DNA of 64,000 bases from an uncultured Bacilli bacterium (GCA_947624505.1 CANQKO010000004.1:4666-68665), one strand, 5' to 3'. Counted from the stretch's first letter, positions 9,415-52,582 are shown. A program made the numbers and translations. Notes: generated by a model not told the origin, from the sequence alone.

Positions 9415-9423
9415 ACTTGGGAC

Positions 9424-13498: not shown

Positions 13499-14212
13499 GT
13501 GGAAAATTTATGGCAAATTTTAGAAGAAGAAAAGAGAAAAGCCCAAGTTGAAAAGATGAACAAAGAAAAATCAGAAATAATTAAAGAACAATATAATGTG
13601 ATGAAAAAGGAATATAATGAAGCATTAAGTATTATTGAAGCTAATTATATTTTTAATTATTTCTTACTCGAGACTTTTCCTGTATTTATTAAAAAATTAA
13701 TTGAAAATAATCATAATGCTTTATTGAAAGATAATATTATTAGTGGAAAAATTACACTTAGTTTAGAAACAAATAATTCGTTTGAATATGAACATATCCG
13801 TATTTTAAAAGGAATAGGGCTTAAAGATTTTTGCACTAATGAAATTATTTATTATTTTGAAAATGATGAGATAAAATTAATGTTTAAGAATCCTTTGATT
13901 TATAATGTTTTCAAAGAAAAACTTATTATATTTTTAGCTAAAAATAACATTATAAATCTTAAAACATCAAACGATTCTAATTTAATTTATGCTAATCCAA
14001 TATATTTTGAAGCGAATATTGAAGATTTAATTAATGCCGCGTATAATGCTCTTCAACAAATAGAAGAAGAAAAAGAAGATTTAAAGGTTTTAATGGATAT
14101 GTGGAATATTGAAGAAGGAAACATTTTAAGATGGCTTAATATTTTTAAGAATCATTATTATTATTTAATAAATTCTGCAAAAGAGGAAATAAAATTATCA
14201 CATAAAAAATAA
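13499..14212 (+). CDS. hypothetical protein, tandem paralog 1 of 4
   Basis: Shares EANYIFNYFL and LQQIEEEKEDLKxLMDxWNI blocks with the next ORF. GTG start 8 nt after GAGG. Confidence 0.65.
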   Translation: MENLWQILEEEKRKAQVEKMNKEKSEIIKEQYNVMKKEYNEALSIIEANYIFNYFLLETFPVFIKKLIENNHNALLKDNIISGKITLSLETNNSFEYEHIRILKGIGLKDFCTNEIIYYFENDEIKLMFKNPLIYNVFKEKLIIFLAKNNIINLKTSNDSNLIYANPIYFEANIEDLINAAYNALQQIEEEKEDLKVLMDMWNIEEGNILRWLNIFKNHYYYLINSAKEEIKLSHKK

Positions 14213-14350
14213 ATTTTTAAGTCAATATAAATAAATTACAATTAGATTAAATGAGTCATTTAGATAAAAAAGAAGAATTACATCCAGAATGTTACAGTGT
14301 AGATTTCAAATGGCGCAGGCTATCGGGTAAATACGAAAGGAAGAGAGAAA

Positions 14351-15202
14351 ATGAAAAAAGATGATCGCATTTGGGAAAGACTAACGTATGTGAAAGAAGA
14401 TAAATACCTCTGGGAAAGACTAGCGTATGTAAAAAACTCGAAAAGAAGAGTGCTTGCAAACGATTTGAATCAAAAAGCACCTGCATATAATTTTAAAAGA
14501 GAAATATTTTTTGATGAAGAAGAAAAAATTGAAATGTCAGAAGAAGATAAATTGCTATTAAAAAATAAAATAATAAAAAAACAGTATAAAAGGATGAAAA
14601 AGGAATATAAACAAGCTTTTGCTGTAGTTGAAGCTAATTATATTTTCAATTATTTTTTAACAGACATTTTTCCTAAATATATTGAGAACTTAACTATAGA
14701 AAGTCATAATGAATTATTGCAAGGAAATATTTCTCTTTTGGTAAAATCATATACTGATTTTAAGGAAGAGTCTTTAGATGCTTCTAATGGACTTCTCTTT
14801 GAAAAAATACTCTATTCTTTTGCAGATAACAGATTAGCAGTAATGTTTAAAGAACCATTAATTTATTTGGTTTTTAAAACAAAACTTAATCAATTTTTAA
14901 TTAAAAATCAAATTATAGCTATTGATGTTCCTATAATAACTAAACATTATAAAGTGGCTAAATATTTTCCATATACAAATCAAATAAATTTTGCAACTAA
15001 TCTTGATTCTTTAAATAAAGCATTAGAAAGTGGATTACAACAAATAGAAGAAGAAAAAGAAGATTTAAAAGCTTTAATGGATACTTGGAATATTTGTGAA
15101 AATGATATTGAAAAAGAGCTTGGCATTAATATTAATAATTATAATGCTTTAATTTCTGATACAAAAAAAGAAACTAAGTTAATACATAAAAAAGAAATTT
15201 AA
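14351..15202 (+). CDS. hypothetical protein, tandem paralog 2 of 4 (with N-terminal WERLxYVK duplication)
   Basis: Same conserved blocks as paralog 1. Extra N-terminus contains a 39-nt-phased duplication. Confidence 0.65.
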   Translation: MKKDDRIWERLTYVKEDKYLWERLAYVKNSKRRVLANDLNQKAPAYNFKREIFFDEEEKIEMSEEDKLLLKNKIIKKQYKRMKKEYKQAFAVVEANYIFNYFLTDIFPKYIENLTIESHNELLQGNISLLVKSYTDFKEESLDASNGLLFEKILYSFADNRLAVMFKEPLIYLVFKTKLNQFLIKNQIIAIDVPIITKHYKVAKYFPYTNQINFATNLDSLNKALESGLQQIEEEKEDLKALMDTWNICENDIEKELGININNYNALISDTKKETKLIHKKEI

Positions 15203-15220
15203 TTATAAGTAGGAGGCTTT

Positions 15221-15853
15221 ATGATTTATTTAGAAGAAGTTATTAAAAATAAAGGTAAATATTCTAAAAGAGCAGATGTGCAAACATATAAAGAAGTTTA
15301 TTATAAAATTTTTACTAATTATGTTTTCTCTTGTTTCTTAATTGATATTTTACCTAATTATATATCATATTTAATTAAAAATAGAGGAATGTTCTTTGTT
15401 AAAGAAGATAAAATAAATATCACTTTTAAAATATTAACTAATGGAGATTTTACTGATACCAAAGGTATTGTGACAAATAGTGAAATGATTTGGAAAAAAG
15501 ATAATCAAAATTTAATAGTATATTTTAAAGATAAAAAATTAATACCTCTTTTCATTGAAAAATTTAATGTATTTTTAAGTAAAAATAGAATTATTTATTA
15601 TAATAAAATAGTTAAAAATTATATTAATTATGGCCTACCTTTAGAAATATACGAAAATTATGTTACTAAAATAGATTTTAGTACCTTTATTAATAATTTT
15701 ATAAGGGCTTATGAAAATGGATTAGAAGAAATAAAGAAAGAAAAAGATAGTTTTAAAGAACTAATGAATGCTTTTAATATAACTGATGAAAATATTTTAG
15801 CATCCCTTAATGTTAATTCAGATGATTATTCAAAAAAGAGAATAAGAAAATAA
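15221..15853 (+). CDS. hypothetical protein, tandem paralog 3 of 4
   Basis: Divergent member (TNYVFSCFLIDILPNYI, GLEEIKKEKDSFKELMNAFNI). AGGAGG RBS. Confidence 0.6.
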   Translation: MIYLEEVIKNKGKYSKRADVQTYKEVYYKIFTNYVFSCFLIDILPNYISYLIKNRGMFFVKEDKINITFKILTNGDFTDTKGIVTNSEMIWKKDNQNLIVYFKDKKLIPLFIEKFNVFLSKNRIIYYNKIVKNYINYGLPLEIYENYVTKIDFSTFINNFIRAYENGLEEIKKEKDSFKELMNAFNITDENILASLNVNSDDYSKKRIRK

Positions 15854-15869
15854 GAAAGAAGGAAGATAA

Positions 15870-16586
15870 ATGGTTGATTTATGGAAATCTTTTGAAGAAG
15901 AAAAAAATAAAGCAATGAAAGAAAAAGAAGCAGTAGCTGAATTTTACAATAAAGCTAAAGAAGAGTATGAAAGTGCAATGTCCACTATTAGTGCTTGTTA
16001 TTTATTTAATTATTTTATCAAAGTAATTTACCCAGAATATATTCAAATTTTATTAAAAAAATATCATAAAGAATTACGATTAGAATGTGTGGGTGAAAAA
16101 ACTACATTACCAATCAGTATTGGTTATGAATTACGAGACAGTTTTGATTATTTTAAAATGTTAGAAAATGCCGGATATTCATTAGATGATTTAAGAAGTG
16201 TTGCAAGAAAAGTTACCTATTGTTTTGCTTATAAAATAAAAAATAGTCAGTTAAGCATTGCTTTTAGAGAAGATAACGACGAAATTTGTGATGTTTTTGC
16301 TAAAAAGTTATATTCGTTTTTACGTAATAATAATTTAATGAATCAATTAGTTACGCCAGAAACTTTAAGTTTAGGGCAAAAGTTAATTTACGAATTTAAT
16401 GCCTCAATCCCTGATTTAATAAGAGCTTATTATAATGGCTTACAACAAATAATATATGAAGAAGACGCTTTAAAAGAACTAATGGATACTTATCAAATAA
16501 CTTTTGAACAAATTATAAATACATTAGGTATTCGTGGCGGAGAATATGTAAATTTTGTTAGTGAAGATGAAAGTCTTAAAAGATAG
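15870..16586 (+). CDS. hypothetical protein, tandem paralog 4 of 4
   Basis: Divergent member (SACYLFNYFIKVIYPEYI, GLQQIIYEEDALKELMDTYQI). GAAGGAAG RBS. Confidence 0.6.
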   Translation: MVDLWKSFEEEKNKAMKEKEAVAEFYNKAKEEYESAMSTISACYLFNYFIKVIYPEYIQILLKKYHKELRLECVGEKTTLPISIGYELRDSFDYFKMLENAGYSLDDLRSVARKVTYCFAYKIKNSQLSIAFREDNDEICDVFAKKLYSFLRNNNLMNQLVTPETLSLGQKLIYEFNASIPDLIRAYYNGLQQIIYEEDALKELMDTYQITFEQIINTLGIRGGEYVNFVSEDESLKR

Positions 16587-24491: not shown

Positions 24492-26624
24492 ATGAGAAAA
24501 GTTACAGTAAAAATTCCAAGAATTCTTATTTTTATTGTGACTTTTCTTTTTATTGCTATAATAATTAGATTATCATATGTGGCCTTAAGCCCTAATATTG
24601 ATGGCATTAATTTAAAAGAATTTGCCAGTAATAGAAATACTAAAGAAGAAGCTATTTATGCTAAAAGAGGAGCAATATATTCAAAAGATGGGAAAACTTT
24701 AGCCTCAATGGTTAATTCTTATACTTTAATTGCTTATCTAGAGCCATCTAGAACAAAAGACGCTAGTGATCCCCAACATGTAGTTGATAAAGAAGGAACA
24801 GCTAAAATATTAAGTGAAAAATTGGGATTATCATATGATTATTTATTGGAAAGATTAAATACAGATGCTTATCAAGTAGAATTTGTGGGAGCTAAAAATA
24901 TATCTGAGTCAAAGAAAAATGAAATAGAAGCATTAAAGTTACCAGGAATTGGTTTTCTTGTTAGTCAAAAAAGAAATTATCCAATGGGTTCATTTGCCTC
25001 ATATATCTTAGGTTATGCCAAAAAAGATGAAGATGGGGAAATTATCGGAGAATTAGGAATAGAAAATGCTTATAATGATATATTAAAAGGAGAAGATGGT
25101 AAACTTACTTATGAAACTGATGCTTATGGTTATCGTCTTCCTAGTGCTAATGTGCAAAAAGAAGAAGCTGTTGAAGGTGATGAGATATATTTAACAATTG
25201 ATAGTAAGATACAATTATTTGCTGAAGATGTTACGGATAACTTAGCTAAAACTCTAACTGATGCAGTAAGTAAAAAAGTTAAAATGGATTGGATGATTTT
25301 TACGGTAATGGATGCTAAAACAGGAGCAATAGTGGCTAGTAGTACTTATCCTGATTTTAATCCTAATGATTTAAGCAGTCTAAAAAATTATGTTAATCCT
25401 TTAGTAAGTTATCCTTATGAACCAGGAAGTGTTATGAAAGTATTTACTTGGGCATCCGCCATTGAAAATGGTGTTTATGATGGTTCAACTGAATATTTAT
25501 CTGGTAAAATTAAAGTAGGTGATTATACTATCAAAGATCACATTGGTGAACAAGGATGGGGAACAATAACTTATGATGAAGGTTTTGCTAAATCTTCCAA
25601 TGTAGCAGCGACTTTAATATCAAGAGGCCTTGGGGCAAATAACTTAAAAAATTATTTATCAGAACTTGGTTTTGGTAAAAGAACTGGTATTGAATTATTT
25701 AATAAGAGTGATAAAGATGATGAACCGGCGGGGACAATTGATTTTCGAGGTGAAGTAGGTCTTGCTACCGCTTCATTTGGTCAAGGTATTATGGTTACCC
25801 CTATTCAAATGTTACAAGGACTCACGGCAATTACTAATGATGGAACAGTCATTAAACCTTATATTGTTGATAAAATAGTTAATGGTAATAATGAAGTCAT
25901 CTATCAAGGGGGAAGAGAAGAGTTAAATAAAGTTTATTCTAAAGAAACAGTAGAACAAATGAAAGATTTAATGTATGAAGTAGTTTATCATGGTTCATCT
26001 GGTGGTATTTGGAAATCTAAAAAAACAACCATTATTGGTAAAACGGGAACAGCACAAATTGGTAGTGCTAATGGTTATCTTACCGGTCATTATGATTATA
26101 TTCAAAGTTTTGCAGGCATTTTCCCAAAAGAAGATCCTCAATATATTTTCTATGTTGCCGCTGAAAAAGCACAAACTAACGCTGGAACAATAGCTAAAGA
26201 AGTTATTAAAGCTGTTGATAATATTGTATCTTATATGGGCCTTGAAGAAAAAGAAGATGATGTATCTAATTTAACCTTTAAGTTAGATAATTATATAAGT
26301 AATGATGTAACTACTACTAAAGAAGAATTAAAAAATAAAAAATTACAAGTTTATGTTTTAGGAAGTGGTAAATATATTACTAATCAATATCCTTTAAAAG
26401 ATATGAAAGTTTTAGAAGGTAGTAAAGTATTTTTAACTACTAATTCAGATGATTATAAATTAGAAGATTTAACCAATTGGAGTTTAAATGAAGTTAAAAC
26501 TTATGCTAACTTACTAGGAATAAACTTAGAAGTTGAAGGATCAGGAAAAGTAATTAGTCAAAGTATTGCTAAAAATACTTTAGTAAATAAAAATACAACT
26601 TTAAAAGTTGTACTTAGTAAATAA
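24492..26624 (+). CDS. class B penicillin-binding protein, PBP2B/FtsI-like, two PASTA domains
   Basis: TM anchor, SXXK (EPGSVMK), SXN (KSSN), KTG (GKTGTA). Two C-terminal PASTA-like modules. Confidence 0.88.
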   Translation: MRKVTVKIPRILIFIVTFLFIAIIIRLSYVALSPNIDGINLKEFASNRNTKEEAIYAKRGAIYSKDGKTLASMVNSYTLIAYLEPSRTKDASDPQHVVDKEGTAKILSEKLGLSYDYLLERLNTDAYQVEFVGAKNISESKKNEIEALKLPGIGFLVSQKRNYPMGSFASYILGYAKKDEDGEIIGELGIENAYNDILKGEDGKLTYETDAYGYRLPSANVQKEEAVEGDEIYLTIDSKIQLFAEDVTDNLAKTLTDAVSKKVKMDWMIFTVMDAKTGAIVASSTYPDFNPNDLSSLKNYVNPLVSYPYEPGSVMKVFTWASAIENGVYDGSTEYLSGKIKVGDYTIKDHIGEQGWGTITYDEGFAKSSNVAATLISRGLGANNLKNYLSELGFGKRTGIELFNKSDKDDEPAGTIDFRGEVGLATASFGQGIMVTPIQMLQGLTAITNDGTVIKPYIVDKIVNGNNEVIYQGGREELNKVYSKETVEQMKDLMYEVVYHGSSGGIWKSKKTTIIGKTGTAQIGSANGYLTGHYDYIQSFAGIFPKEDPQYIFYVAAEKAQTNAGTIAKEVIKAVDNIVSYMGLEEKEDDVSNLTFKLDNYISNDVTTTKEELKNKKLQVYVLGSGKYITNQYPLKDMKVLEGSKVFLTTNSDDYKLEDLTNWSLNEVKTYANLLGINLEVEGSGKVISQSIAKNTLVNKNTTLKVVLSK

Positions 26625-26744
26625 CTAAAAACGTTTTAATTTAGGACTATTTTGTTCTTTATTTAAGGAATTAAATAATTGGACAAAATAGTTCATTTCA
26701 TTTTAATTATTATCTAATAAGTAAAAGATATTTAAAAGTTTAAA

Positions 26745-27827
26745 TTAACTATTCTTACTGATATTTAGTAATATTCCAATTGAGGCCATACTGACAAGCA
26801 AACTTGATCCCCCATAAGATAAGAAGGGAAGAGTAACACCAGTTACGGGAATAAGACCAACGACAACCATTAAATTTAAAACAGCTTGAATAATAAGACC
26901 AAAAGACAACCCAAAGGCTAAAAATTTACCAAATAAATCTTTGCTTTTTAAGGAAATCGTCATCCCCCGATAGAAGATAATAAAAAATAAACTACTCACA
27001 ATTAAGATACCTAAGAAACCTAATTCTTCACTAATAATAGAAAAGATAAAATCAGTTTGGGGTTCTGGTAAATAAAAATATTTTTGTCTTGATTTTAAAA
27101 ATCCTTGTCCTAACAAGCCACCAGGACCAATGGCATATAGACTTTGAAGTATTTGATACCCACTTCCTAAGGGGTCACTCCAAGGATTAAGAAAACTAAC
27201 GATTCTTTTCATTCGGTAAGGAGCAGCGATAATGATGCTTACTATACCTAGTAAACCAAGAAGACCAATTTTGACAAAGAAAGATATATTAACACCACTA
27301 GTAAAAATTAACACAACTAAAGTGATGACGATAACCATTGCGGTTCCAAAATCTGGTTCCATCATAATGATAAGAAAGAAAAAAGCAATAACTCCTAAAA
27401 TAGGTAAAACACCCTTGGTAATACTTTTCATTGTTTTTTTATTATTAGTTAAATATTTAGAAACATAAATAATCAACCCAATTTTCGCAAATTCACTTGG
27501 CTGGATTCCTAAAGAACCGATCCCAAACCAACTTCTAGAACCATTTCTAATACTACCTATACCAGGAATTAAAACAAGTATTAATAAAGTAGCACAAATA
27601 ATTAAGATAATATTAGCATATTTATAATAGATATGATAATCTAATTTAGTTAAGAAATACATTATAACTAAACCGATTAAAAAGAAAATTGTTTGCATTT
27701 TAACAAATTTATATGGATCTTGAAATTTATATTCTGCCCAAACAAAACTAGCTGAATAAATCATTACAAGCCCAAATATTGCTATTAAAAGACAAACAAT
27801 TAATAAAGGTTTATCAATCTTTTTCAA
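26745..27827 (-). CDS. SEDS family peptidoglycan polymerase (FtsW/SpoVE/RodA family)
   Basis: Ten TM segments, RNGSRSWF, PEPQTDFIFS, LPFLSYGGSS motifs. Lies downstream of mraY on the minus strand. Confidence 0.88.
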   Translation of the reverse strand: MKKIDKPLLIVCLLIAIFGLVMIYSASFVWAEYKFQDPYKFVKMQTIFFLIGLVIMYFLTKLDYHIYYKYANIILIICATLLILVLIPGIGSIRNGSRSWFGIGSLGIQPSEFAKIGLIIYVSKYLTNNKKTMKSITKGVLPILGVIAFFFLIIMMEPDFGTAMVIVITLVVLIFTSGVNISFFVKIGLLGLLGIVSIIIAAPYRMKRIVSFLNPWSDPLGSGYQILQSLYAIGPGGLLGQGFLKSRQKYFYLPEPQTDFIFSIISEELGFLGILIVSSLFFIIFYRGMTISLKSKDLFGKFLAFGLSFGLIIQAVLNLMVVVGLIPVTGVTLPFLSYGGSSLLVSMASIGILLNISKNS

Positions 27828-27850
27828 AACCCCAACCCCCTAAATATATT

Positions 27851-28843
27851 TTATAACCAAACTCCGTAAGTAATCGCTGCCATTGCGAGTAACAACCCAA
27901 CCACATAGAATAATTTTATAATATCACTTTCATTCCATTTTAATTCTTCGAAATGGTGATGCAGTGGAGCTTTTAAAAATACTTTTTTATGAAATTCTCT
28001 AATACCAATAATTTGAATAAAACTACTTAATGTTTCAATAACAAAGACCCCGCCAATAATTGCTAAAGATAATTCGTGTCTTGTTAGAATAGCAATAGTT
28101 GCTAAAGCACCTCCTAAGGAAAGTGAACCTAAATCCCCCATAAATACTTTAGCTGGATGAGAGTTAAAGACTAGAAAGCCAAGAAGAGCACCAACAATTA
28201 AGAAACAAAAGATAGCTATTTCTTGATATCCTTCAAGCCAACCACAATTCCAAGAGATAATACCATAAGCAAGAAAAGCAATGGCGGAAAGTCCTGCACA
28301 TAGTCCATCAAGCCCATCCGTAATATTAACTGCATTAGTAGTACCTACTAATAAGAAGAGAATAAATAAACCAAAGGTCCAACCTAATGGAATAATTAAA
28401 TTTAAGGCTGTAAATTCTATTGTTGAAGAACCACCACTTCGCATAAAGAAGTAAAAGAATACTAAAGCAATAATAACTTGAATTAAAAATTTAGTAACTA
28501 AGCTTAAACCGGCATTATTTTTATATTTAACTTTTAAAAAGTCATCAACTCCCCCTAAAATAGCATAGGCAAGAAAGACAAAAATTAGAATAAAGATATT
28601 AAAACTCAGTTCAATACTGCCATTTATGTAGAGGAGTATTAAAGAAAGAATAACCGGAATGATAAAAATAATTCCGCCCATTGTGGGTGTTCCTTCTTTT
28701 TTTAAATGCCTTTTATTGATATCGCGACTAACGCTTTGGCCAATATGAAATTTTTTTAAAATAGGAATAAAGATTAGTCCACAAGATATGGCTAGGGTAA
28801 AACCTAACATCATTGCCATTGCCGCTTTTGCTAGAATTAACAT
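27851..28843 (-). CDS. mraY: phospho-N-acetylmuramoyl-pentapeptide transferase MraY
   Basis: PTMGGIIF, NAVNITDGLDGL, FMGDLGSLSLGG, APLHHHFE motifs. Confidence 0.95.
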   Translation of the reverse strand: MLILAKAAMAMMLGFTLAISCGLIFIPILKKFHIGQSVSRDINKRHLKKEGTPTMGGIIFIIPVILSLILLYINGSIELSFNIFILIFVFLAYAILGGVDDFLKVKYKNNAGLSLVTKFLIQVIIALVFFYFFMRSGGSSTIEFTALNLIIPLGWTFGLFILFLLVGTTNAVNITDGLDGLCAGLSAIAFLAYGIISWNCGWLEGYQEIAIFCFLIVGALLGFLVFNSHPAKVFMGDLGSLSLGGALATIAILTRHELSLAIIGGVFVIETLSSFIQIIGIREFHKKVFLKAPLHHHFEELKWNESDIIKLFYVVGLLLAMAAITYGVWL

Positions 28844-28924
28844 AAGTAATTCACCTCTTTTTAATTATACAACATCGTTGTAGCTTTTATTAAAGACGAT
28901 AATAATTATTTACAAAAATTGACA

Positions 28925-29953
28925 TTAGTTTAGTAAAAGAGTTATAGTTGTATCAACGCTTTGAAATGTATTAGCTGCTGGAGACATATAAACAACTTTA
29001 TCACCATTACCACTATATTTAACTTTAAAATCTTTTAAGGCTTTGGTGGCCTCGCTCTTACTCGTTCCTACCACATCAGGGACAACTAAATATTTAACAT
29101 CTAAATAAGAATATTCTTTAAGCATTCCACCACTTTGTTCTTTAATTCCTAATGTTTCTATAGCGCTCATTAGAATACTTCTCGCAATTGGCGCCGAGAC
29201 GGTTCCACCATATTGAGTGACACCTTTAGGATTATCGATAGCAACATAGACAATTACTTCAGGATCATTTGCGGGCAAAAAGCCAATAAAAGAAAGGGTA
29301 TAATTACCAACCATATATTTGCCATCTTTAACTTTTTGCGCCGTTCCAGTTTTACCACCAACACGGTAATTTTCAATGTAAGCATTTTTACCTGTTCCAT
29401 TAGCAACGACACTTTCAAGAGCAAAGCGAGCAGTGGCGGATGTCTCTGGGGAAATAACTCTTCTTTTTTCTTTCGGCTTATTTTCAAAAACAATGGTTTT
29501 ACTTACTTCATCAGTGGTATTCATAACTACATAAGGGGTATATAAAATACCACCATTAATCACAGCAGATACTGCCGTTATTTGTTGAATTGGCGTAACA
29601 CTTATACCTTGGCCAAAAGCGGTAGTGGCAAGTTCTAATGGCCCCATTTTTTCTTCTTTAAATAGAATACCATTTCCTTCACCATTTAAGTCAATACCCG
29701 TTTTACTCCCAAACCCAAAGTTTTTGATATAACTCATTAGTTTTTCTATGCCCAGTTTATTTCCTAAGGAAACAAAACCCGGATTACAAGAATTTTCAAC
29801 TACTTCTAGGTAGGTTTGCGTACCGTGCCCACCTCTTTTCCAACAGTGAAGAGTCCCTCCATCTACACTTATGGCCCCACTATCAGTAAAAGTATCTTTA
29901 AATAAATCAACTGTACCTTCTTCAATGGAAGATGCTAAAGTAATTATTTTAAA
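28925..29953 (-). CDS. SpoVD-like class B PBP, C-terminal fragment (transpeptidase remainder plus one PASTA domain), split by the element
   Basis: Begins ...TFKIITLASSIEEG, i.e. just after the SXXK serine. Contains SXN (SCNPGF), KTG (GKTGTAQK) and one PASTA domain. The annotated MVV start is element-derived sequence. Confidence 0.85.
   Translation of the reverse strand, partial: FKIITLASSIEEGTVDLFKDTFTDSGAISVDGGTLHCWKRGGHGTQTYLEVVENSCNPGFVSLGNKLGIEKLMSYIKNFGFGSKTGIDLNGEGNGILFKEEKMGPLELATTAFGQGISVTPIQQITAVSAVINGGILYTPYVVMNTTDEVSKTIVFENKPKEKRRVISPETSATARFALESVVANGTGKNAYIENYRVGGKTGTAQKVKDGKYMVGNYTLSFIGFLPANDPEVIVYVAIDNPKGVTQYGGTVSAPIARSILMSAIETLGIKEQSGGMLKEYSYLDVKYLVVPDVVGTSKSEATKALKDFKVKYSGNGDKVVYMSPAANTFQSVDTTITLLLN
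29946..29953. repeat. element junction core ATTTTAAA (copy 1)
   Basis: Identical to 33323-33330. The extended match is ATTTTAAAnGT. Confidence 0.8.
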
Positions 29954-29977
29954 CGTCACTACCATTTAGTGACGTTT
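29951..29977. repeat. 11-bp perfect inverted repeat at the element end (AAACGTCACTA-ccatt-TAGTGACGTTT)
   Basis: Read directly. Abuts the core repeat on the element side. Candidate recombinase half-site or a hairpin after the ATPase gene. Confidence 0.7.
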
Positions 29978-29985
29978 AATATTAT

Positions 29986-31278
29986 TTAATCTTTTAGAGC
30001 TGTTATAGGAATAACTATAACGCCATCACTTCTAGTATAAATAGCATTAGAAAGTCCACAAATAACGCATAAGCTTTTTGGAGGATTACCCCCTTTTTCT
30101 TTAATAATATTACTAACTTTAATTAAATTATTCGCTGCCTCTTCGATTTGACCAGCCCCAAGTTTAATTTCAAATGCTATATAATTACCGTCTTCAATTT
30201 CCACTACTGCATCAAATTCATTACCATCATAGTCTTGATAATGAAACAAATTCCAATTATTTGCTTCAGCATATATTCTTAAATCTCTTACTACCATTGC
30301 TTCAAAGAAAAAACCAAAAGTGAGTAAATCATTAACGCACATATCAACTGTCATATTGAGTAGAGAAGTAGCAATAGAAGGATCAACAAAATGCCTTTTC
30401 TCCATTTGTTTTACACGCATACTACTTCTAATATTAGAATTAAAAGGCAATTGATTTTCTATTAAATATAATTTACTTAAATCTTCCAAATATTCGGTAA
30501 TAGTTTTTACATCGATATCTAAATTATCTACCCCTTGAATATCGCTTCTTAATTTAGCAATTGATGAAGTTGTAGATTCATTCCTTGAAAGTGATCTAAG
30601 TAATAACATCATTTTATTTAAATCTCTTTTAGAATCACTAATTCTATTTATATCTGTATCAATAATTTCTTTAATATATTCTTTAGGTAATTTAATAGCT
30701 TCATCAAAAGGAACATCAATGCTTCCAGGAAATCCTCCTCTTAAAACTAACTTTATAATATCTTTCAAATTAATATCTCGTGTTTTTTTACTTTTAACTT
30801 TATTATTATAAATATCTTTTAAAGAAACATCTCCCGAAGAATCGCCAGATTCATATAAACTCATTGGATACATTTTTAATTTTTTTATCCTTCCAGCTCC
30901 TGAATGTTTAATTTTATCTAATTTCTTTTTTGGTAATACAGTAGAGCCCGTTAAAATATATTTACCTTTAACTCCATCTTCATCACACTTATATCTAGTT
31001 GCATCCCAAATCTCTGGCACCTCTTGCCATTCATCAATTAATCTTGGTGCTTCACCTTCAAAAATAAGTGATATATCAGTTTCGGCAAGCCTTCTATTTT
31101 GATAATTACCGCTAGGATCCATAAGTAAAAATTCGCTTTTAGCATGTTTCCTTCCTGCCCAAGTTTTACCAATCCACTTGGCTCCAACAATGTTTATTGC
31201 CCCATAAGCTTTTAAACTATTTTCTATTTGCTTATCAATTAATCTTGGTTTATATTGTGACAATTTCATCAACTCCAT
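29986..31278 (-). CDS. AAA-type ATP-binding protein (AAA_14/DUF4143-like) with a C-terminal PD-(D/E)xK-like motif
   Basis: Walker A GAKWIGKT, Walker B RLIDEWQ, C-terminal DAVVEIEDGNYIAFEIKLG. Domain order is typical of the DUF4143 ATPase family. Confidence 0.7.
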   Translation of the reverse strand: MELMKLSQYKPRLIDKQIENSLKAYGAINIVGAKWIGKTWAGRKHAKSEFLLMDPSGNYQNRRLAETDISLIFEGEAPRLIDEWQEVPEIWDATRYKCDEDGVKGKYILTGSTVLPKKKLDKIKHSGAGRIKKLKMYPMSLYESGDSSGDVSLKDIYNNKVKSKKTRDINLKDIIKLVLRGGFPGSIDVPFDEAIKLPKEYIKEIIDTDINRISDSKRDLNKMMLLLRSLSRNESTTSSIAKLRSDIQGVDNLDIDVKTITEYLEDLSKLYLIENQLPFNSNIRSSMRVKQMEKRHFVDPSIATSLLNMTVDMCVNDLLTFGFFFEAMVVRDLRIYAEANNWNLFHYQDYDGNEFDAVVEIEDGNYIAFEIKLGAGQIEEAANNLIKVSNIIKEKGGNPPKSLCVICGLSNAIYTRSDGVIVIPITALKD

Positions 31279-31401
31279 ATATTTATTATATAATATTAAG
31301 TAAATATTGTCTATTATATCGGATGATTTTTTGACATTTTATTGGATGAAATTTTTGAATTTCATTGGATAGCTTTTTTCGATGATAAAGTGTTAAAAAA
31401 A

Positions 31402-33129
31402 TTATAATGTTTCAAGATAAACATTATAATTATAATTGTTTTGTTTTTTATCTTTTCTTTTAGCATCTTTTGAGACATAATTTTTATTATCTATATATAA
31501 TATTTCGTTATCTAATGAGCCATTTAAATGTTTTGCTCCTTTATTTTTTTCTATTAATAAATCATTTAGGTTTAAATAGATATCTAAGTGAACTCTATAT
31601 CTATCATTATCAATTTTAGATACAATAATTTCATCTAAAAATTTTTTAATAAAGTCTTCTAATAAATTATATTCTAATTCATTTTCTATATATTTTTTAA
31701 TATCTAATCTATTTTTTTTAAAATTTAAAATATTTTCTTTTTCTCTTAAAATATCTTCTTTTTGTCTAATTAAAATATTTAACTCTTTTTCATACTTTTT
31801 AAATTGGATTTTTAGTTCATCTTTAGTTAGATCTTTATTAAATACTAAATCAAGAGCCATTGTTTTTTTATCTTCAATTCTGCTTATATTATCTTCAATA
31901 TTTTGTAAGTCATCATCTTGATTAAAATTTTCAATATCTTTATATAACATATATAGATCATTTACAATTTTCTTTTTATTTATAGGAATCTTTTTCATAA
32001 TATCATCCATAATTTTATATAAGTCAGCTTCCGCAATAATTGGTGTTTCACAAGCCATAAGACGATACTTTAAATACATACCACAACACCATACAGGACG
32101 CCTTTTTTTCTTACTACCATGACTTCTTTGAAAGTTAGTATTATGATATTTACAATATAATTTAGAAGAAAAAGCGTATTTTAATCCGCCATTAAAAGAA
32201 TTATTATTTTGATAATTTTTAGTTCTTATTTTTAAAATATCATTTGCTTTATTCCATAATTCTTCCGCCACTATTGGGGGAATTATTGTTTCGTTTGCCC
32301 TATATATAACTTGTTTATCTTCACTTATTTTAATTCTTTTTTTAGTTCGATAATCAATAACTTCACTTGTTTTGCCCCGATAATATCCTTTATATTTAGG
32401 ATTAGATATTATTCTTTTTAAAGTATCTTTATCATAATAATTACCATTTTTATTATAATAATTAAGACTTGCTAATACTTTTGCTAATTTATATAAACCA
32501 TAATTTCCACTAGCATATAATTCAAATATTTTTCGGACTAATTTGGCTTCACTTGGAACAATCACTAATTTACAATTTTCTTTTTTATACCCAATAATAT
32601 TAGATGAGCCTAAAACATGGCCTTTTTTTATTGCTTCCATATGGCCAAATTTTATTCTTCCCGATAATTTTCTTGATTCATCTTGAGCCAAATTAAACAT
32701 TATATTTAAAATAAGTTCTGAATTAGCATCAAAAGTATTTAAATTTTGATTTTCGAAATAAATACCAACATTAGCGTTTTTTAATATGCGTATGTAATGA
32801 ATACTATCTTCTAAATCTCGAGCAAAACGGGATACTTCTTTAGTAATTATTAAATCAAATTTGCCTTTTTTGGCATCATCAATCATTTTTTTAAATCCCC
32901 ATCTTTTTTCAACTCTTACTCCCGATATTCCTTCGTCAATATAACCATTCACATATGTCCAGTTTGGTTTAGATTTAATATAATTTTCATAATAACTTTG
33001 TTGATTTTCTAAACTATTTAATTGATTATCACTTTCGGTTGACACTCTTGCATAAAAGCATACTCTAAGGGGTAAATTAACTATTTTTTCACCATTCATA
33101 ACTAATTTAGCAATTTCTAAAAAATTCAT
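31402..33129 (-). CDS. large serine recombinase (resolvase N-domain, recombinase domain, zinc ribbon, coiled coil)
   Basis: Catalytic-serine motif FYARVSTESDNQ, VSRFARD, Cys cluster CKYH...CCGMY...C, long C-terminal coiled coil. 575 aa. Confidence 0.9.
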   Translation of the reverse strand: MNFLEIAKLVMNGEKIVNLPLRVCFYARVSTESDNQLNSLENQQSYYENYIKSKPNWTYVNGYIDEGISGVRVEKRWGFKKMIDDAKKGKFDLIITKEVSRFARDLEDSIHYIRILKNANVGIYFENQNLNTFDANSELILNIMFNLAQDESRKLSGRIKFGHMEAIKKGHVLGSSNIIGYKKENCKLVIVPSEAKLVRKIFELYASGNYGLYKLAKVLASLNYYNKNGNYYDKDTLKRIISNPKYKGYYRGKTSEVIDYRTKKRIKISEDKQVIYRANETIIPPIVAEELWNKANDILKIRTKNYQNNNSFNGGLKYAFSSKLYCKYHNTNFQRSHGSKKKRRPVWCCGMYLKYRLMACETPIIAEADLYKIMDDIMKKIPINKKKIVNDLYMLYKDIENFNQDDDLQNIEDNISRIEDKKTMALDLVFNKDLTKDELKIQFKKYEKELNILIRQKEDILREKENILNFKKNRLDIKKYIENELEYNLLEDFIKKFLDEIIVSKIDNDRYRVHLDIYLNLNDLLIEKNKGAKHLNGSLDNEILYIDNKNYVSKDAKRKDKKQNNYNYNVYLETL

Positions 33130-33260
33130 TTATATTCCTCACATTTTTTTAATAACTTTTCATTAACACATAAAAATGTTTTTTCGTCAATAAGATTTTT
33201 TTTATATAAATTTTGATTAATAATTATTTCAATATTTAAATAAAACAAATAATTATCCAT
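33126..33260 (-). CDS. 44-aa ORF translationally coupled to the recombinase (ATGA overlap)
   Basis: MDNYLFYLNIEIIINQNLYKKNLIDEKTFLCVNEKLLKKCEEYK*. Its TGA overlaps the recombinase ATG. It lies inside the element and no family was recognised. Confidence 0.3.
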   Translation of the reverse strand: MDNYLFYLNIEIIINQNLYKKNLIDEKTFLCVNEKLLKKCEEYK

Positions 33261-33322
33261 TCTCATCACCACTTAATAATACGTTTTTATAACTTTTATT
33301 ATGTCTATAAACTGGCGTTGCA

Positions 33323-33330
33323 ATTTTAAA
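33323..33330. repeat. element junction core ATTTTAAA (copy 2)
   Basis: Identical to 29946-29953. Encodes F-K-I of the STFKI active-site segment on the minus strand. Confidence 0.8.
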
Positions 33331-34215
33331 AGTACTACCAGGTTCAAAAGTCATCCAAATGGGTAAGTTTCTATTAATAACTTCTTCTGAGTAATCTTGA
33401 TATTTAGATGGATTAAAAGAGGGCAGACTTCCCATTGCTAGTATTTCGCCTGTTTTAGGTTTCATTACAATACTTAAAGCAGCATCAGCATTATATTTAT
33501 CGGTGGCATTTTTAAGTTCATTATCAACAGCTTTAACAAGTTCAATATCGAGTGTTAATTTTAAAGTCATTCCTTTAGTCGGAGCAACATAACTATCCGG
33601 TATTTCTAATTTATTTCCTTTGCCATCACTATAATATTTAAGTTCCCCATTCGTTCCTTTTAAATATTCATCATAGGTAAGTTCAAGTCCTGATAATCCT
33701 TGATTATCACTTCCAACAAAACCTATAATATGAGCTAAAGTTTCTCCATAAGGATAATATCTTTTAGAATCAACTACTAAATAAACTCCATCATATCCTA
33801 AAGCTTCAATTTTATCAGCAACTTCGCTATCTAAATCCATTCCTTTACGAATAATTTCCATACTACTATTTTTGGCAACATATTTATATACATCATCATA
33901 AGAACAATTTAATACCTCGGCAATATCTTTGGCAACTTTTTCTTTATCTTTAATTTGATTAGGCACTACATAAATTGTGGTTGTAACTATACTAGTAGCT
34001 AGAATATTACCGTTTCGATCAACTATGTCTCCTCTTGGGGCATTAATAGTCATTTTTCTACTCCATAAATCTTCAGTTATCTTGGATAATTTATTATAAG
34101 ATATTACTTGAATATAAAATACTTTACCAATAATTAATAGAAGCGCAATAGATACAACAATTACCACAAATCTAATTCTTATATGAATATCATTAAAAAA
34201 CATCTTCTTCACCAC
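33323..34215 (-). CDS. SpoVD-like class B PBP, N-terminal fragment (TM anchor, dimerisation domain, up to the SXXK motif)
   Basis: TM anchor, PBP dimer domain, ends at FEPGSTFK-I. The listed ORF then runs 22 more codons into the element (ATPVYRHNK...) before a stop at 33253. Confidence 0.85.
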
Positions 34216-34331
34216 TAAATAATATGTTTAAATAAAATGAATTATTAATTTGCCAATTTACATATAATTTATTATAAATAAATTGAAAAATAAAGTTATG
34301 TATGATATTATTTTTCTATAAGGAGGATAAA

Positions 34332-34883
34332 ATGAGTTGGTGGATAATTTTAATTATTGTGGCTGTTTTAATTATTTTATATGTAATAAGCATCTATAAT
34401 AGTCTTGTTAGTTTGAAAAACAAAGTAGACGATCAAAAAAGTCAAATTGATGTTGAACTTAAAAGAAGATTTGATTTAGTACCTAATTTAGTTGAAACAG
34501 TTAAAGGCTATACTAAACACGAGAAAGAAACTTTAGAGGATGTTGTTAAAGCTAGAAATGCTTATGCAACTGCAAATAGCACCGAAGAATCTTTAAAAGC
34601 TGATGGTGAATTAACTAAAGCTATTAACAAATTATTTGCTTTATCAGAAAGTTATCCTGATTTAAAAGCTAATCAAAACTTTATTGATTTACAAAATGAA
34701 CTTTCTGAAATAGAACAAAAAATTGTTTATGCTAGAGGATTCTATAATGATTCTATCTTAAAATATAATAATAAAGTTCAAATGTTTCCATCTAATATAA
34801 TTGCTAAAATATTTGGCTTTACTAAAGGTGCTTTCTTTGAAGCTAGTAGTGAAGAAAGAGAAAATGTTAAAGTTAAATTCTAA
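34332..34883 (+). CDS. lemA: LemA family protein
   Basis: TM helix plus YPDLKANQNF and FYNDSILKYNNKVQMFPSNIIA motifs. AGGAGG RBS 5 nt before ATG 34332. Confidence 0.85.
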   Translation: MSWWIILIIVAVLIILYVISIYNSLVSLKNKVDDQKSQIDVELKRRFDLVPNLVETVKGYTKHEKETLEDVVKARNAYATANSTEESLKADGELTKAINKLFALSESYPDLKANQNFIDLQNELSEIEQKIVYARGFYNDSILKYNNKVQMFPSNIIAKIFGFTKGAFFEASSEERENVKVKF

Positions 34884-34921
34884 AGGCATTAGTTAATGCC
34901 TTTTAATTTTTGAGGTGACTT

Positions 34922-36598
34922 ATGATAAAAAAATTATCTTATTTAATAATATTATTAGTAACTTTGTTTATAAGTAGTGAAGTGTACGCAAATGATATAA
35001 AAAAAATAACTATGGATATCTATGTTAATAATAATGGGGATGCCTTAGTTACGGAAGAATGGACGGCTGATTTAGACAGAGGAACAGAAGGGTATAAGCC
35101 ATATTATAATTTAGGTAATAGTGAAATTAAAAATTTTAAAGTTTATTTAAATAATTATGAATATGAAACATTATCTAGTTGGAATGTTAATGCATCATTT
35201 AATGAAAAAGCTTACAAAGCTGGAATAAACAAAATAAATAATGGCTATGAATTATGCTTTGGCATTAGTAAGTATGGTCTTAATACCTACAGAATGGTTT
35301 ATACAATTACTAATTTTGTTTCTAGTGTTAATGATGCTGATATGATTTACTGGCAATTAGTTCCTTATGATTTATCTGATAAACCTGATTATGTTTATAT
35401 TAAAATCCATAGTGATTTTGCTTATGCTAATGACCTACCTGTCTGGGGTTATGGTAATTATGGAGGGTATGCTTATGTTTATGATGGGTATATCGAAATG
35501 TTAAAAGAAGATGGTCTTGATAGCGATGAATATATGACTATTTTAGTTAAGTTTCCCAAAGGAACTTTTAATACTTCTTCAAAATTAAATAAAGATTTTA
35601 CTTATTATTTAGATATGGCTAACGATGGCGCTAAAACATATTCTAATAAACCCAATTGGAAAAATATTTTTATAGGTATAATAATTGCCATATTTGGCCT
35701 TATTATAAACTTTTTACCTTATATAATTATCCTTTTTGTTATTTATAAAATATTTAGTCAAAGTAAATATGGTACTAAAAAATTAAAGTTTGGTAAAATT
35801 GGTAAAAAAGTAAAAAATTCGCCATATTTTAGAGATATTCCTTTAAATAAAGATATATTTAAAGCTTATTGGGTAGCTTGTGAATATAATTTAATTAAAA
35901 AACAAACCGATTTTTTAGGAGCAATTCTTTTAAAATGGTTAAAAAATAATAACATTGAAAATGTAACTATTGAAGGTAAAAGTGATAAAGCTCTTAAACT
36001 AATTAGTAGTGATAATTTATCGGTAAGAGAAAAAGAGTTATTTGATATGATGTTAAAAGCATCAGTTGATGGCGTGTTAGAAAGTAATGAATTTACTAAA
36101 TGGTGTAAAAATAATTATAATAAGATATTATCTTGGTTTAATAATGTTATTGATGATCAAACAATTAATTTTGTTAATGAAGGTTTAATTAGAGAAGAAA
36201 AAGGGAAATTTACTGCAACTTATTATGTTGATGATAAAATGATGGAATATGCCATTCAAATGGATGGATTAAAAAATTTCTTAAATGATTTTTCGAATAT
36301 TAAAGATCGGGAAGCAATTGAAGTTAAAATCTGGGAATACTATTTAATGTATGCCCAAATATTTGGTATAGCTGAAAAAGTAGCTAAAGAATTTAAAAGA
36401 TTATATCCAGATATTTTAACGGATGATTATTATAATGATGTAATATTTATTCATACAATTTCAGCTAAAGGAGTAAGCGCTGCAAGCACAGCCAAAAGTA
36501 GAGCTGAGAGTTATTCATCGGGTGGAGGAGGATTCTCATCCGGTGGTGGTGGAGGTGGCTCCTTCGGTGGCGGAGGCGGCGGAGGCGGTTTCCGTTAA
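34922..36598 (+). CDS. DUF2207 domain membrane protein with glycine-rich tail
   Basis: Signal peptide, DUF2207-like N-domain, TM pair, C-terminal SSGGGGFSSGGGGGGSFGGGGGGGGFR. Common LemA-DUF2207 gene pair. Confidence 0.75.
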   Translation: MIKKLSYLIILLVTLFISSEVYANDIKKITMDIYVNNNGDALVTEEWTADLDRGTEGYKPYYNLGNSEIKNFKVYLNNYEYETLSSWNVNASFNEKAYKAGINKINNGYELCFGISKYGLNTYRMVYTITNFVSSVNDADMIYWQLVPYDLSDKPDYVYIKIHSDFAYANDLPVWGYGNYGGYAYVYDGYIEMLKEDGLDSDEYMTILVKFPKGTFNTSSKLNKDFTYYLDMANDGAKTYSNKPNWKNIFIGIIIAIFGLIINFLPYIIILFVIYKIFSQSKYGTKKLKFGKIGKKVKNSPYFRDIPLNKDIFKAYWVACEYNLIKKQTDFLGAILLKWLKNNNIENVTIEGKSDKALKLISSDNLSVREKELFDMMLKASVDGVLESNEFTKWCKNNYNKILSWFNNVIDDQTINFVNEGLIREEKGKFTATYYVDDKMMEYAIQMDGLKNFLNDFSNIKDREAIEVKIWEYYLMYAQIFGIAEKVAKEFKRLYPDILTDDYYNDVIFIHTISAKGVSAASTAKSRAESYSSGGGGFSSGGGGGGSFGGGGGGGGFR

Positions 36599-44220: not shown

Positions 44221-44333
44221 AAAAAAGCGGTGATTCCAGCCATTAAATGGGAAACGAAAAAAGCGGTGATTCCAGCCATAAATGGGAAACGAAAAAAGCG
44301 GTGATTCCAGCCATAAATGGGAAACGAAAAAAG
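44221..44333 (+). ncRNA. type III antitoxin RNA: 3.2 head-to-tail repeats of 35-36 nt
   Basis: AAAAAAGCGGTGATTCCAGCCAT(T)AAATGGGAAACG at 44221-44256 (36 nt, one extra T), 44257-44291 and 44292-44326 (35 nt, identical), plus a 7-nt partial fourth unit. Sits between a promoter and a terminator, directly upstream of a ToxN/AbiQ-like gene. Confidence 0.8.
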
Positions 44334-44335
44334 TT

Positions 44336-44368
44336 GATTAGAGACTAAACTCTAATCTTTTCTTTTTT
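44336..44368 (+). terminator. rho-independent terminator between antitoxin repeats and toxin gene
   Basis: GATTAGAG-actaaa-CTCTAATC hairpin followed by TTTTCTTTTTT. Confidence 0.75.
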
Positions 44369-44418
44369 ATAAAAGTATTATATAATAAATATAGGTTTTA
44401 TAGAGGGGGAAATAATAA

Positions 44419-44937
44419 ATGAAAAATAAATTTAAATTAGTAATTGTAGATTCCAATTATTGTGATTATTTAAGACAATTTGATTATAAAGTGGCTTATA
44501 ATAAAGACGAAAAGTCATTAAGGCCTTTTGTTGGAGTTTTATTTACATTAAATGATATTGAATATTTTGCACCGTTATCTAGTCCAAAATTAAAACATCA
44601 AAAGATGCATAATACTATTGATTTTATTAAACTTGATGGTGGTTTTTTAGGAGCTTTAAATATTAATAATATGATACCTGTAAAAAAAGATAATTATGAG
44701 ATCTTTGAATTTCAAGAAGATTCTACTAATCTTAAAGATAAACAATATTATAATTTATTAAGAAAACAGTTGTTATGGCTTAATTCTAGATATCGTTATA
44801 TAAAAAATAAATCTTTAAATTTATATAATAGTTATTTAAATGATAAATTACCAATAAAAGTAAAAGAAAGATGTTGTAATTTCATATTGCTTGAAAAGAA
44901 ATGTTTAGAATATGAAAAAAGTTTTATCAAAGGATAG
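44419..44937 (+). CDS. ToxN/AbiQ family type III toxin endoribonuclease
   Basis: 172 aa. YCDYLRQFDYKV...RPFVGVLF...YFAPLSSPKLKH...NINNMIPV matches the conserved ToxN/AbiQ blocks (Y.EYLK.FD.KV, AFIGI, YLAPLTSPK, N...MIP). GAGGGGG RBS. Confidence 0.8.
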   Translation: MKNKFKLVIVDSNYCDYLRQFDYKVAYNKDEKSLRPFVGVLFTLNDIEYFAPLSSPKLKHQKMHNTIDFIKLDGGFLGALNINNMIPVKKDNYEIFEFQEDSTNLKDKQYYNLLRKQLLWLNSRYRYIKNKSLNLYNSYLNDKLPIKVKERCCNFILLEKKCLEYEKSFIKG

Positions 44938-51012: not shown

Positions 51013-51420
51013 ATGAATGTTAAAAAAATGAAAGTAATAACAATTAAACAACCATGGGCAACGTTAATAGCTAAAGGCTATAAAGAATATGAATTTAGAA
51101 CTTGGAAAACTAAATATCGGGGAGATATATTAATTCACGCTGGTAAAGGGATTGATAAAGAAGCTATGAAGCGTTTTAAACATTTAAATTTAGAATATCC
51201 CGCTGGTAAAATAATTGCTCGGGCAACTATTACAGACTGTATATATGTTGATAAAAGTTTTGTCGAAAAGTTGGTTAAAAAAGATCCCCTTGTATATAAA
51301 AATTTAATAAATGAAAAAAATTGGGAGGGATATGGTTTTAAATTAGAAAATGTTCTGGAAATAAAACCCATTCAAGTAAAGGGTAAATTAAGTCTATGGG
51401 ACTATGAATATAAAAGCTAG
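51013..51420 (+). CDS. ASCH domain protein
   Basis: ITIKQPWATLIAKGYKEYEFRTWKTKYRGDILIHAG is the PUA-like ASCH pattern. Confidence 0.7.
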   Translation: MNVKKMKVITIKQPWATLIAKGYKEYEFRTWKTKYRGDILIHAGKGIDKEAMKRFKHLNLEYPAGKIIARATITDCIYVDKSFVEKLVKKDPLVYKNLINEKNWEGYGFKLENVLEIKPIQVKGKLSLWDYEYKS

Positions 51421-51442
51421 GTTAAAATTTACGGAGGCAAAT

Positions 51443-51790: not shown

Positions 51791-51829
51791 ATGTTATAAT
51801 TGATAAAAATTTAGATTGGAGATAATAAA

Positions 51830-52564: not shown

Positions 52565-52582
52565 AAATAAGGGAGCAAAATT

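Follow-up and report, generated by a model that had tools for sequence, protein, structure and literature searches.

A small serine-recombinase element at the active-site codons of spoVD in uncultured Bacilli, probably excised at sporulation in the manner of skin

Several sporulation genes are known to undergo rearrangement, namely sigK, spsM, spoVFB, spoVR, gerE, yabG, cotJC and spoIIID; we found no published case of an interrupted spoVD in the literature searched. Here we describe such a case in a 64,000-nucleotide stretch of DNA (the window) from an uncultured Bacilli bacterium (GCA_947624505.1, CANQKO010000004.1:4666-68665), where a 3377-bp element encoding a large serine recombinase splits spoVD. 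We think it probable that this is a small integrative element, belonging to one family (family A) of at least three, which was inserted at the SXXK codons of spoVD by its recombinase and is excised developmentally at sporulation, as skin is. The class of element is already known, and spoVD is apparently a new target. On the sequence evidence, the unusual features are the occurrence of three families at three sites, double interruption of one gene, defence-type cargo, and an uncultured host with a reduced genome.

Skin in sigK (SpoIVCA and Skr in B. subtilis, CD1231 and CD1234 in C. difficile) is likewise a large-serine-recombinase element within the open reading frame (ORF) of a gene that is expressed in the mother cell, as spoVD is predicted to be, and its removal joins the gene precisely and in frame, as does that of the spoVD element. 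The small upstream or overlapping skr gene, which encodes a recombination directionality factor (RDF), parallels a small ORF of the spoVD element that we call orfX; this is a comparison of layout. The target of skin is a sigma factor whereas that of the spoVD element is an enzyme, and the spoVD element differs further in that its excision is predicted, in being polymorphic and horizontally mobile among species, and in having no prophage genes. The original prediction for this DNA held that at 3.4 kb the element would be far smaller than the ~48-kb skin, but there is precedent for such a size, since published skin elements go down to 2.6 kb and two genes (bioRxiv 10.1101/2022.02.25.481979).

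The gin element in gerE of Bacillus cereus (PMC5595907) is also of non-phage type and also pairs a serine recombinase with a very small protein, in gin an RDF (GirC with the 42-aa GirX; the candidate RDF OrfX has 46 aa), and it too carries defence-type cargo, in its case restriction-modification. It is 28.6 kb long with three recombinases, whereas the family-A spoVD elements have a single recombinase and measure 2.8-4.3 kb; OrfX showed no sequence similarity to GirX or another named RDF. SPbeta in spsM (SprA and SprB) and vfbin and vrin in spoVFB and spoVR (PMC4191935, PMC6957869) share with the spoVD element the order attL-rdf-int-attR, with orfX as the candidate rdf, and, as is predicted for the spoVD element, have a mother-cell-specific host gene and are kept by the spore. 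They are, however, prophages, or defective ones, tens of kb in length; SPbeta has a constitutive integrase, and its RDF alone is under sporulation control.

Further afield, the heterocyst-specific elements of cyanobacterial nifD, fdxN and hupL (XisA, XisF and XisC) are likewise several independent elements, in genes needed only in a terminally differentiated cell, and more than one can occur per gene or operon, as in a doubly split spoVD described below, although the phylum and the developmental programme are different. XisF is a large serine recombinase, but the recombinase of the spoVD element matches the XisF model weakly, at 66 bits against a cut-off of 375. Its best NCBIfam matches are CcrC (94.7 bits) and CcrB (88.5 bits), from the CcrA/B/C group of SCCmec, which are small cargo-carrying, non-phage, site-specific islands; these scores are about ten-fold below cut-offs of 900, and SCCmec targets the 3' end of rlmH instead of a gene for sporulation and reconstitutes no gene.

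On the minus strand of the window, SpoVD is encoded in two pieces. The 5' fragment (33331-34203) covers residues 1-292 from the ATG, with a transmembrane (TM) segment, the dimerisation domain of a penicillin-binding protein (PBP), and the transpeptidase domain as far as the Thr codon of EPGST. The minus-strand ORF containing it (33253-34215) runs through 297 N-terminal residues of a class B PBP to ...FEPGSTFK and then through 23 unrelated codons belonging to the element; this tail of the truncated SpoVD' ORF (33253-33322) reads IATPVYRHNKSYKNVLLSGDENG and ends in a stop codon that overlaps the start of orfX. The 3' fragment (28925-29945) resumes with IITLASS and continues to the stop with the SXN and KTG motifs; its ORF (28925-29965) begins MVVTFKIITLASS... 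(MVVTFK...) and codes for what remains of the transpeptidase domain and for a single PASTA domain. Within the attachment (att) core at 33323-33330 lie the codons for Phe and Lys of FK. With these extents, the two minus-strand PBP ORFs of the original prediction are present, and its identical 8-bp repeats 3377 bp apart were found at 29946-29953 and 33323-33330.

Removal of 29954-33330 (3377 bp) in silico gives a 1914-nt in-frame ORF of 637 codons from a GTG at 34215, which reproduces the join first proposed; the true start is likely the conserved ATG at 34203, for a product of 633 aa. By Pfam the rejoined protein has PBP_dimer, Transpeptidase (262.6 bits) and one PASTA stretch. It aligns colinearly with the spoVD_pbp profile TIGR02214 (profile positions 4-632 of 636) at 686.2 bits, the cut-off being 688, which supplies the alignment to profile models that had been suggested as a check, and it aligns over 99-100% of its length with more than 100 intact proteins of 633-637 aa at 63-89% identity. 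SXXK, SXN and KTG are all present in the rejoined product, and restored function is predicted. The paralogue at 24492-26624 (710 aa) is intact, has two PASTA stretches, best matches PBP2X-type division PBPs and reaches just 334.6 bits on TIGR02214, so that the contrast originally drawn between a one-PASTA split gene and a two-PASTA paralogue is borne out. This vegetative PBP2B-like paralogue, which has an SXXK of its own, is uninterrupted in the window and in related loci.

Might the two fragments instead be translated separately and assemble as a two-piece PBP, with no rearrangement at all? The 5' fragment does keep a complete SXXK, and each of the 18 family-A clusters among the best 120 clusters of C-terminal SpoVD fragments has an in-frame ATG (MV-x-TFK) ahead of its 3' fragment. 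But this ATG is explained by a conserved attP half-site, AAATGGTAG, which gives an in-frame ATG-GTN before the 3' fragment at every family-A attR junction (29960-29965 in the window). Moreover, the 3' fragment is without a signal peptide or TM segment of its own, yet the transpeptidase domain acts outside the membrane, and the break falls inside the catalytic fold; we therefore regard a two-piece protein as very improbable. Gene callers report the family-A 3' fragment as a 346-aa protein starting MV-x-TFK, a handy search signature for split genes.

The att cores read TTTAAAAT on the gene strand, at 33323-33330 (attL) and 29946-29953 (attR), and the element, taken as one core copy plus the interior, occupies 29954-33330 on the minus strand. 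On the plus strand the same octamer, ATTTTAAA, has a third copy at 33558; with that copy nearby, and in DNA of 27% GC, the octamer repeat is by itself weak evidence. A natural empty site comes from L184 (L-numbers denote loci on contigs of related genomes), which is ~94% identical to the window in nucleotide sequence and colinear with it on both sides, the alignment being broken exactly at the two octamers, so that the 3377 bp are missing. The attB predicted from attL and attR (GGTAGTACTTTTAAAATAATTACTT; the predicted attP is AAATGGTAGTGACGTTTAAAATTGCAACGCCAG) agrees with L184 at 75 of 76 positions. The L184 spoVD is uninterrupted, at 633 aa, and P0242, a protein of the same 90% cluster that comes from L184, is 98.5% identical to the joined protein straight across the junction. 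L184 and the window also have an unusual local gene order in common, with lexA, DUF2207 and lemA divergent from spoVD-mraY-spoVE and the latter convergent with pbp2B. This empty site, of the kind that the original prediction had proposed looking for, shows that the insertion is real, precise, and recent enough to be polymorphic, and the cut does lie within the codons of the catalytic motif, precisely at SXXK. An assembly chimera or a binning artefact is scarcely credible: the window does come from a metagenome-assembled contig, but junctions of identical architecture recur in eight species and in assemblies made independently by NCBI, ENA and Logan, and both flanks run colinear with L184.

Relative to the canonical mraZ-mraW-ftsL-pbp2B-spoVD-mraY-spoVE order of L008 and L002, the spoVD-mraY-spoVE segment of the window (26745-34215) is inverted with respect to 24492-26624 and 34302-34883. 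The 94%-identical L184 has the same order, so the inversion belongs to the lineage and does not stem from faulty assembly. In other relatives spoVD is found in yet other contexts (L009).

The conserved half-sites of the family-A elements are GAACCNGGNNNNACNTTTAA and AATTGYNNCNCCA at attL and AAATGGTAGNNACGTTYAA and AATNATNACTTTAGC at attR. The block of identity between attL and attR is reduced to TTTAA in L002 and L003 and to AAAGTTGTAAC in L004, and the sole bases common to the blocks of all eight elements are AA, the first two of the catalytic Lys codon. As the only overlap of these blocks, AA is most likely the crossover dinucleotide, at 33327-33326 in attL and 29950-29949 in attR. Around this putative crossover the dyad symmetry is imperfect, with 13 of 24 positions matching between the attP arms and 9 of 24 between the attB arms. 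A perfect 11-bp inverted repeat (AAACGTCACTA / TAGTGACGTTT, 29949-29979) at the right end of the element overlaps the attR half-site; its left arm was found in the window alone and not in the other elements.

The element has three ORFs only, and its order along spoVD is attL core, orfX, recombinase, a sigma-70-like promoter match, an ATPase gene, a short hairpin and attR core. The 575-aa recombinase (31402-33129, minus strand) had been recognized in the original prediction, and its Resolvase, Recombinase and Zn_ribbon_recom domains all score above their cut-offs (PF00239, 105.3 bits; PF07508, 60.3 bits; PF13408, 27.1 bits); it matches the phrog_95 integrase at 339.7 bits. The catalytic motif YARVST (S30) is unchanged in eight copies of the recombinase, and the gene starts 194 bp from the attL core, as in all family-A copies. 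Overlooked at first were the conserved 46-aa ORF (orfX) and the cargo gene (29986-31278, minus strand), which encodes a 430-aa ATPase assigned to AAA_14/DUF4143 by Pfam. The ATPase matches PADLOC candidate PDC-S01 (PDLC04790, a single-gene phage-defence candidate) over its full length at 206 bits, and copies 89-96% identical occur in L004, L006 and L007. The sigma-70-like match before it (31285-31313, minus strand; TAGACA, 17 nt, TATAAT; 11 of 12 positions) is a consensus match only. We rejected a phage origin for the element: the PHROGs search matched the integrase only, with no phage structural, replication or lysis genes, and the nearest phage integrases are 39-44% identical. No Rfam families were found in 26000-35000.

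The small gene orfX (33126-33266, minus strand; 46 aa, MRMDNYLFYLNIEIIINQNLYKKNLIDEKTF...) is a candidate RDF gene. Its TGA overlaps the recombinase ATG (ATGA), and it is present between attL and the recombinase in nine of nine family-A elements, with the core ...IIINxNLYKKNIIDEKTFxxVNExLLKK... and with pS greater than pN in nearly every pair, indicating purifying selection. Homologous small ORFs of 41-68 aa occur across families A, B and C, directly 5' of the recombinase or overlapping it, and an OrfX profile found 56 clusters in 1.84 billion representatives, almost all of 41-92 aa. The AlphaFold (AF2) model is a two-helix hairpin with a pLDDT of 91.6. No phage homologues were found by tblastn; in MT837325, a small ORF beside a 37%-identical recombinase shares a 12-residue motif with OrfX, a match that is no more than suggestive. 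We infer that OrfX is an RDF because its position mirrors those of sprB, upstream of sprA, and skr, which overlaps spoIVCA (PMC6957869). In a strain ~99% identical to the window, a short deletion joins the SpoVD' tail in frame to the C-terminal half of orfX, giving a 337-aa protein (P0276; fusion point ...SGDEN followed by LIDEKTFLCVNEKLLKKCEEYK), which could be a natural orfX-defective element.

The original prediction concerned a single element, and that part stands, but the phenomenon is wider, with three recombinase families at three spoVD sites. The same spoVD site (directly after codon ~297) is occupied in seven other species-representative metagenome-assembled genomes (MAGs) (rabbit gut, "uncultured Bacilli"), whose recombinases are 59-87% identical to that of the window and whose half-sites are conserved; this is what became of a proposed survey for the same recombinase at spoVD. 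Family-A elements measure 2763, 2802, 3377, 3674, 4261 and 4298 bp, and all of their genes are co-oriented with spoVD; the cargo varies and includes the DUF4143 ATPase, a Fic-domain protein (PDC-S04, 320 bits) and unknown proteins. Contig CANRQF010000014 (L006/L092) has spoVD in three pieces with two elements at once, a 4298-bp family-A element at SXXK and a 6091-bp element just after the SCN (SXN) codons, the latter having AACC as its core and ending in inverted repeats (GCAAGAGATAC); joined up, the pieces still give a 635-aa ORF. L181 has a related family-B element. A third family, C, has its left end in L001 and L030 after ...GQGxSVTPI (the TPIQ codons) and its right end in L183; its core is ATACA and its arms are GTCTAATAAATGA. 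The attP arms of families B and C are clearly inverted repeats, the recombinases of the three families are 39-42% identical to one another, and all three insertion sites lie within the longest invariant blocks of SpoVD.

The family-B and -C elements (L006/L092, L004, L001, L030, L181, L183) range from 6 kb to more than 10 kb, with cargo that includes an HTH regulator, ABC-type ATPases, enzymes that modify sugars and a zeta toxin. The second element of L004 has a left end unlike that of L006. At L096 (JAEEGL015661443.1), positions 6800-9990 hold a family-A orfX-recombinase pair directly upstream of a spoVD 3' fragment with no 5' fragment within 7 kb upstream and a 2102-aa ORF instead, either a rearranged locus or a chimeric contig. 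A complete 1.54-Mb MAG (L020, OZ007038.1) has an intact spoVD and, ~1.8 kb upstream of it, 45 codons (8063-8197; RKLPIWATYEPWSNFKIITLVATLEKGK...) that copy the spoVD att region in decayed form and may be a relic of an earlier element-associated rearrangement.

Split spoVD genes are widespread in the lineage, judging from where homology starts in the best 120 clusters of C-terminal SpoVD fragments: 18 start at residues 292-295, 24 at 349-352, 43 more at 358-368 (the next in-frame Met) and a few at 414-417, and nearly all reach the native C-terminus. This search listed fragments and no full-length proteins, so that a frequency of split versus intact genes is not derivable from it. That many strains carry an interrupted gene shows spoVD to be dispensable for growth.

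Are these genes still in use? At least six split alleles from different species could be reconstructed in full, and on rejoining they give 633-635 aa with neither a stop nor a frameshift, so that the inactivating mutations that might have been expected in the fragments of relatives, had the genes been abandoned, were looked for and found in none of the six. The dN/dS of spoVD is 0.07-0.13 for split-split pairs and 0.07-0.16 for intact-intact pairs, with dS ~1, and recombinase omega is 0.12-0.19 among close copies. We had considered dN/dS as proof of function while split, and reduced it to supportive only, since the insertions may be recent; that not one decayed split allele was seen carries more weight. 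The elements move between species: the recombinase dS is about half or less of that of the host gene, and in L001 the recombinase is 87% but SpoVD only 55% identical, the trees being incongruent. The element is not a fixed, domesticated insert; it is horizontally mobile and missing from the 94%-identical L184. What remains of the original skin-like reading is a precise insertion in a spoVD orthologue and a restorable gene, with excision in the mother cell as the probable outcome.

The chief rival reading is that we are dealing with a selfish integrative element on a conserved safe site, which knocks out spoVD and excises sporadically, its carriers sporulating poorly or not at all until it is lost. 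We consider this doubtful, though there is a good deal to be said for it. The elements are mobile and polymorphic even between 94%-identical genomes, each of the three targets coincides with one of the most invariant stretches of the gene, as target-site conservation alone predicts, the defence-type cargo could offset a sporulation cost, no excision product was found in the assemblies searched, and sporulation has been lost repeatedly in related orders (PMC10868615). On the other hand, decay is seen neither in the six reconstructed alleles nor in most of the best 120 fragment clusters, at 58-99% divergence; even the doubly interrupted allele is still perfectly restorable, and the neighbouring sporulation genes are intact. 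In the window and related loci it is the sporulation paralogue alone that is hit, never the vegetative PBP2B-like one, and the recombinase module stands in a fixed orientation directly behind the spoVD promoter. Finally, the well-studied serine-recombinase elements in mother-cell genes all excise developmentally (PMC4191935, PMC5595907, PMC5025042).

The finding of split and empty alleles side by side in very close relatives would also suit a heritable on/off switch, in which low-frequency excision, and maybe re-integration, in dividing cells produces bet-hedging subpopulations that do or do not sporulate; a recombinase with a possible RDF could run in both directions. We hold this to be unlikely. 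The 3.4-kb circle is without replication genes and would be lost on division, so that the switch would work one way only; no attP was found in the assemblies searched, and horizontal gain explains the coexistence of alleles equally well.

Excision at sporulation is, in our view, the best explanation for the combination of intact split alleles, sporulation genes in the window and a mother-cell-type -10 box. In B. subtilis, both spoVD and spoVE are cortex genes under sigma-E control, and mother-cell expression of spoVD is known there (PMC517825). Directly downstream of spoVD in the window are mraY (27851-28843; TIGR00445, 298.6 bits) and spoVE (26745-27827), both on the minus strand, and SpoVE passes TIGR02615 (453.1 bits, cut-off 448.8). 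Downstream of ftsA-ftsZ lies spoIIGA-sigE-sigG (3543-5812, plus strand), assigned by best match (SigE 323.6 bits, SigG 332.4 bits); SpoIIGA, SigE and SigG each score somewhat below the equivalog cut-off, as expected for a divergent lineage. SpoIVB and a YlmC/YmxH protein are also encoded, the neighbouring sporulation genes being intact. By sequence, then, the window shows an encoded mother-cell/forespore sigma programme.

The promoter-like region of spoVD (34219-34247, minus strand) consists of TAATAAT, 14 nt and CATATTAT, a -10-like box 23 nt upstream of the ATG. Of 34 clade loci, 22 have a CATAnnnT box exactly 23 nt before the start codon of spoVD, as CATATTAT in the window and CATACACT in two others; the box resembles the -10 of sigma-E/sigma-K promoters in the B. 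subtilis consensus. The orfX-recombinase module is always co-oriented with spoVD and in family A lies directly behind the 5' fragment. Given this co-orientation, the stop/start overlap, and the lack of any predicted terminator between spoVD' and the recombinase in the window, the spoVD promoter could express the orfX-recombinase pair of family A. As to a sigma-E promoter of its own for orfX, the 30-nt spoVD leader matches upstream of orfX at 24 of 30 positions, the best chance match in the window being 22 of 30, and we did not use this candidate. In families B and C, a terminator ahead of orfX calls for a separate promoter; family A may have one too.

In general, dimers of a serine integrase bind attL and attR, cut the central dinucleotide, rotate and religate, and an RDF turns the reaction towards excision. 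We propose that the germ-line genome, vegetative and in the spore, would keep spoVD split and inactive, which would be harmless in the vegetative state because only synthesis of the spore cortex requires SpoVD. At sporulation, the mother cell would make the recombinase and co-translated OrfX, in family A by read-through from the upstream mother-cell-type spoVD promoter or from a promoter of their own. OrfX, as directionality factor, would direct attL x attR recombination, releasing a 3377-bp circle and restoring the 633-aa spoVD product; in family A, excision would hand the same spoVD promoter to the restored gene. The mother cell would then lyse while the spore kept the element. The element may pay its way, or may merely persist, with its single candidate anti-phage gene, and would spread horizontally to empty spoVD sites.

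Several observations weigh against this scheme. The attP circle junction, sought with a degenerate 32-nt pattern, had no match in 185,579 species genomes and IMG/VR assemblies, although such a search is uninformative because mother-cell DNA is rare in assemblies. Recombinase dS is 0.45-0.60 against 1.1-2.3 for spoVD in the same genome pairs, making the elements younger than the host splits; the low spoVD dN/dS may therefore largely predate insertion and is no proof of long residence. Empty spoVD sites are common, so the element is dispensable. The TIGR02214 score of the rejoined protein is 1.8 bits under the cut-off, and taking the -10 box as sigma-E-type depends on its resemblance to a consensus. 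For OrfX there is no Pfam match, no significant match to its fold in the PDB (generic helical hairpins, E > 5), and in PHROGs only a weak match to phrog_2996 (E 0.005) that does not point to a known RDF. Read-through from spoVD is not a general route, since a strong terminator lies 5' of orfX in families B and C, and no dedicated orfX-recombinase promoter was identified. Finally, the host belongs to an uncultured MAG lineage in which sporulation is predicted only (PMC10868615).

Relatives of the host are uncultured Bacilli/Tenericutes, Mycoplasma sp. CAG:611 and Candidatus Faecisoma, with one complete MAG of 1.54 Mb. They fall among the reduced-genome orders RF39, RFN20 and ML615J-28, several of which are predicted to form spores, and a reduced presence of spoVD is reported for RF39 (PMC10868615). 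A broader proposal, which we offer tentatively as a possibility, is that spoVD is a multi-site landing pad in reduced-genome gut Bacilli, with three seemingly unrelated families at SXXK, SXN and TPIQ, up to two per gene, bearing anti-phage or other cargo, all being excised in the mother cell and family A being timed by the host sigma-E-type promoter, which would drive OrfX and the recombinase at first and SpoVD once excision had taken place.

Elsewhere in the window, a type III toxin-antitoxin locus (ToxIN/AbiQ-like, 44221-44937) begins with the array expected for the RNA antitoxin, a 35-nt repeat present 3.2 times in tandem (44221-44333, 98% matches), followed by a ToxN_toxin gene (44419-44937; PF13958, 156 bits). 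Four successive paralogous ORFs of 237, 283, 210 and 238 aa with similar N-termini and no Pfam family lie at 13499-16586. A cluster of mobile-element type (51013-55092) encodes ASCH-domain, Virulence_RhuM, Bro-N and KilA-N proteins; genes of the ORF6N/KilA-N type also adjoin spoVE in L009 and L092.

If excision is confirmed, spoVD would join the sporulation genes rebuilt by programmed rearrangement, and would do so in a lineage known from metagenomes only. As a hot spot, spoVD illustrates how several independent elements can converge on a single gene and insert where its codons are most conserved. The OrfX proteins form a compact candidate RDF family for serine integrases, enzymes that are useful tools for genome engineering. 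Split spoVD genes called as two or three fragments may contribute to the reduced spoVD presence reported for RF39-type genomes (PMC10868615), and such miscalls could distort predictions of which gut bacteria sporulate. Should the landing-pad proposal be true, Firmicutes would have in spoVD a counterpart to the nif genes that carry multiple interruptions in heterocystous cyanobacteria, and defence islands could be hidden in the germ line by this means without vegetative cost.

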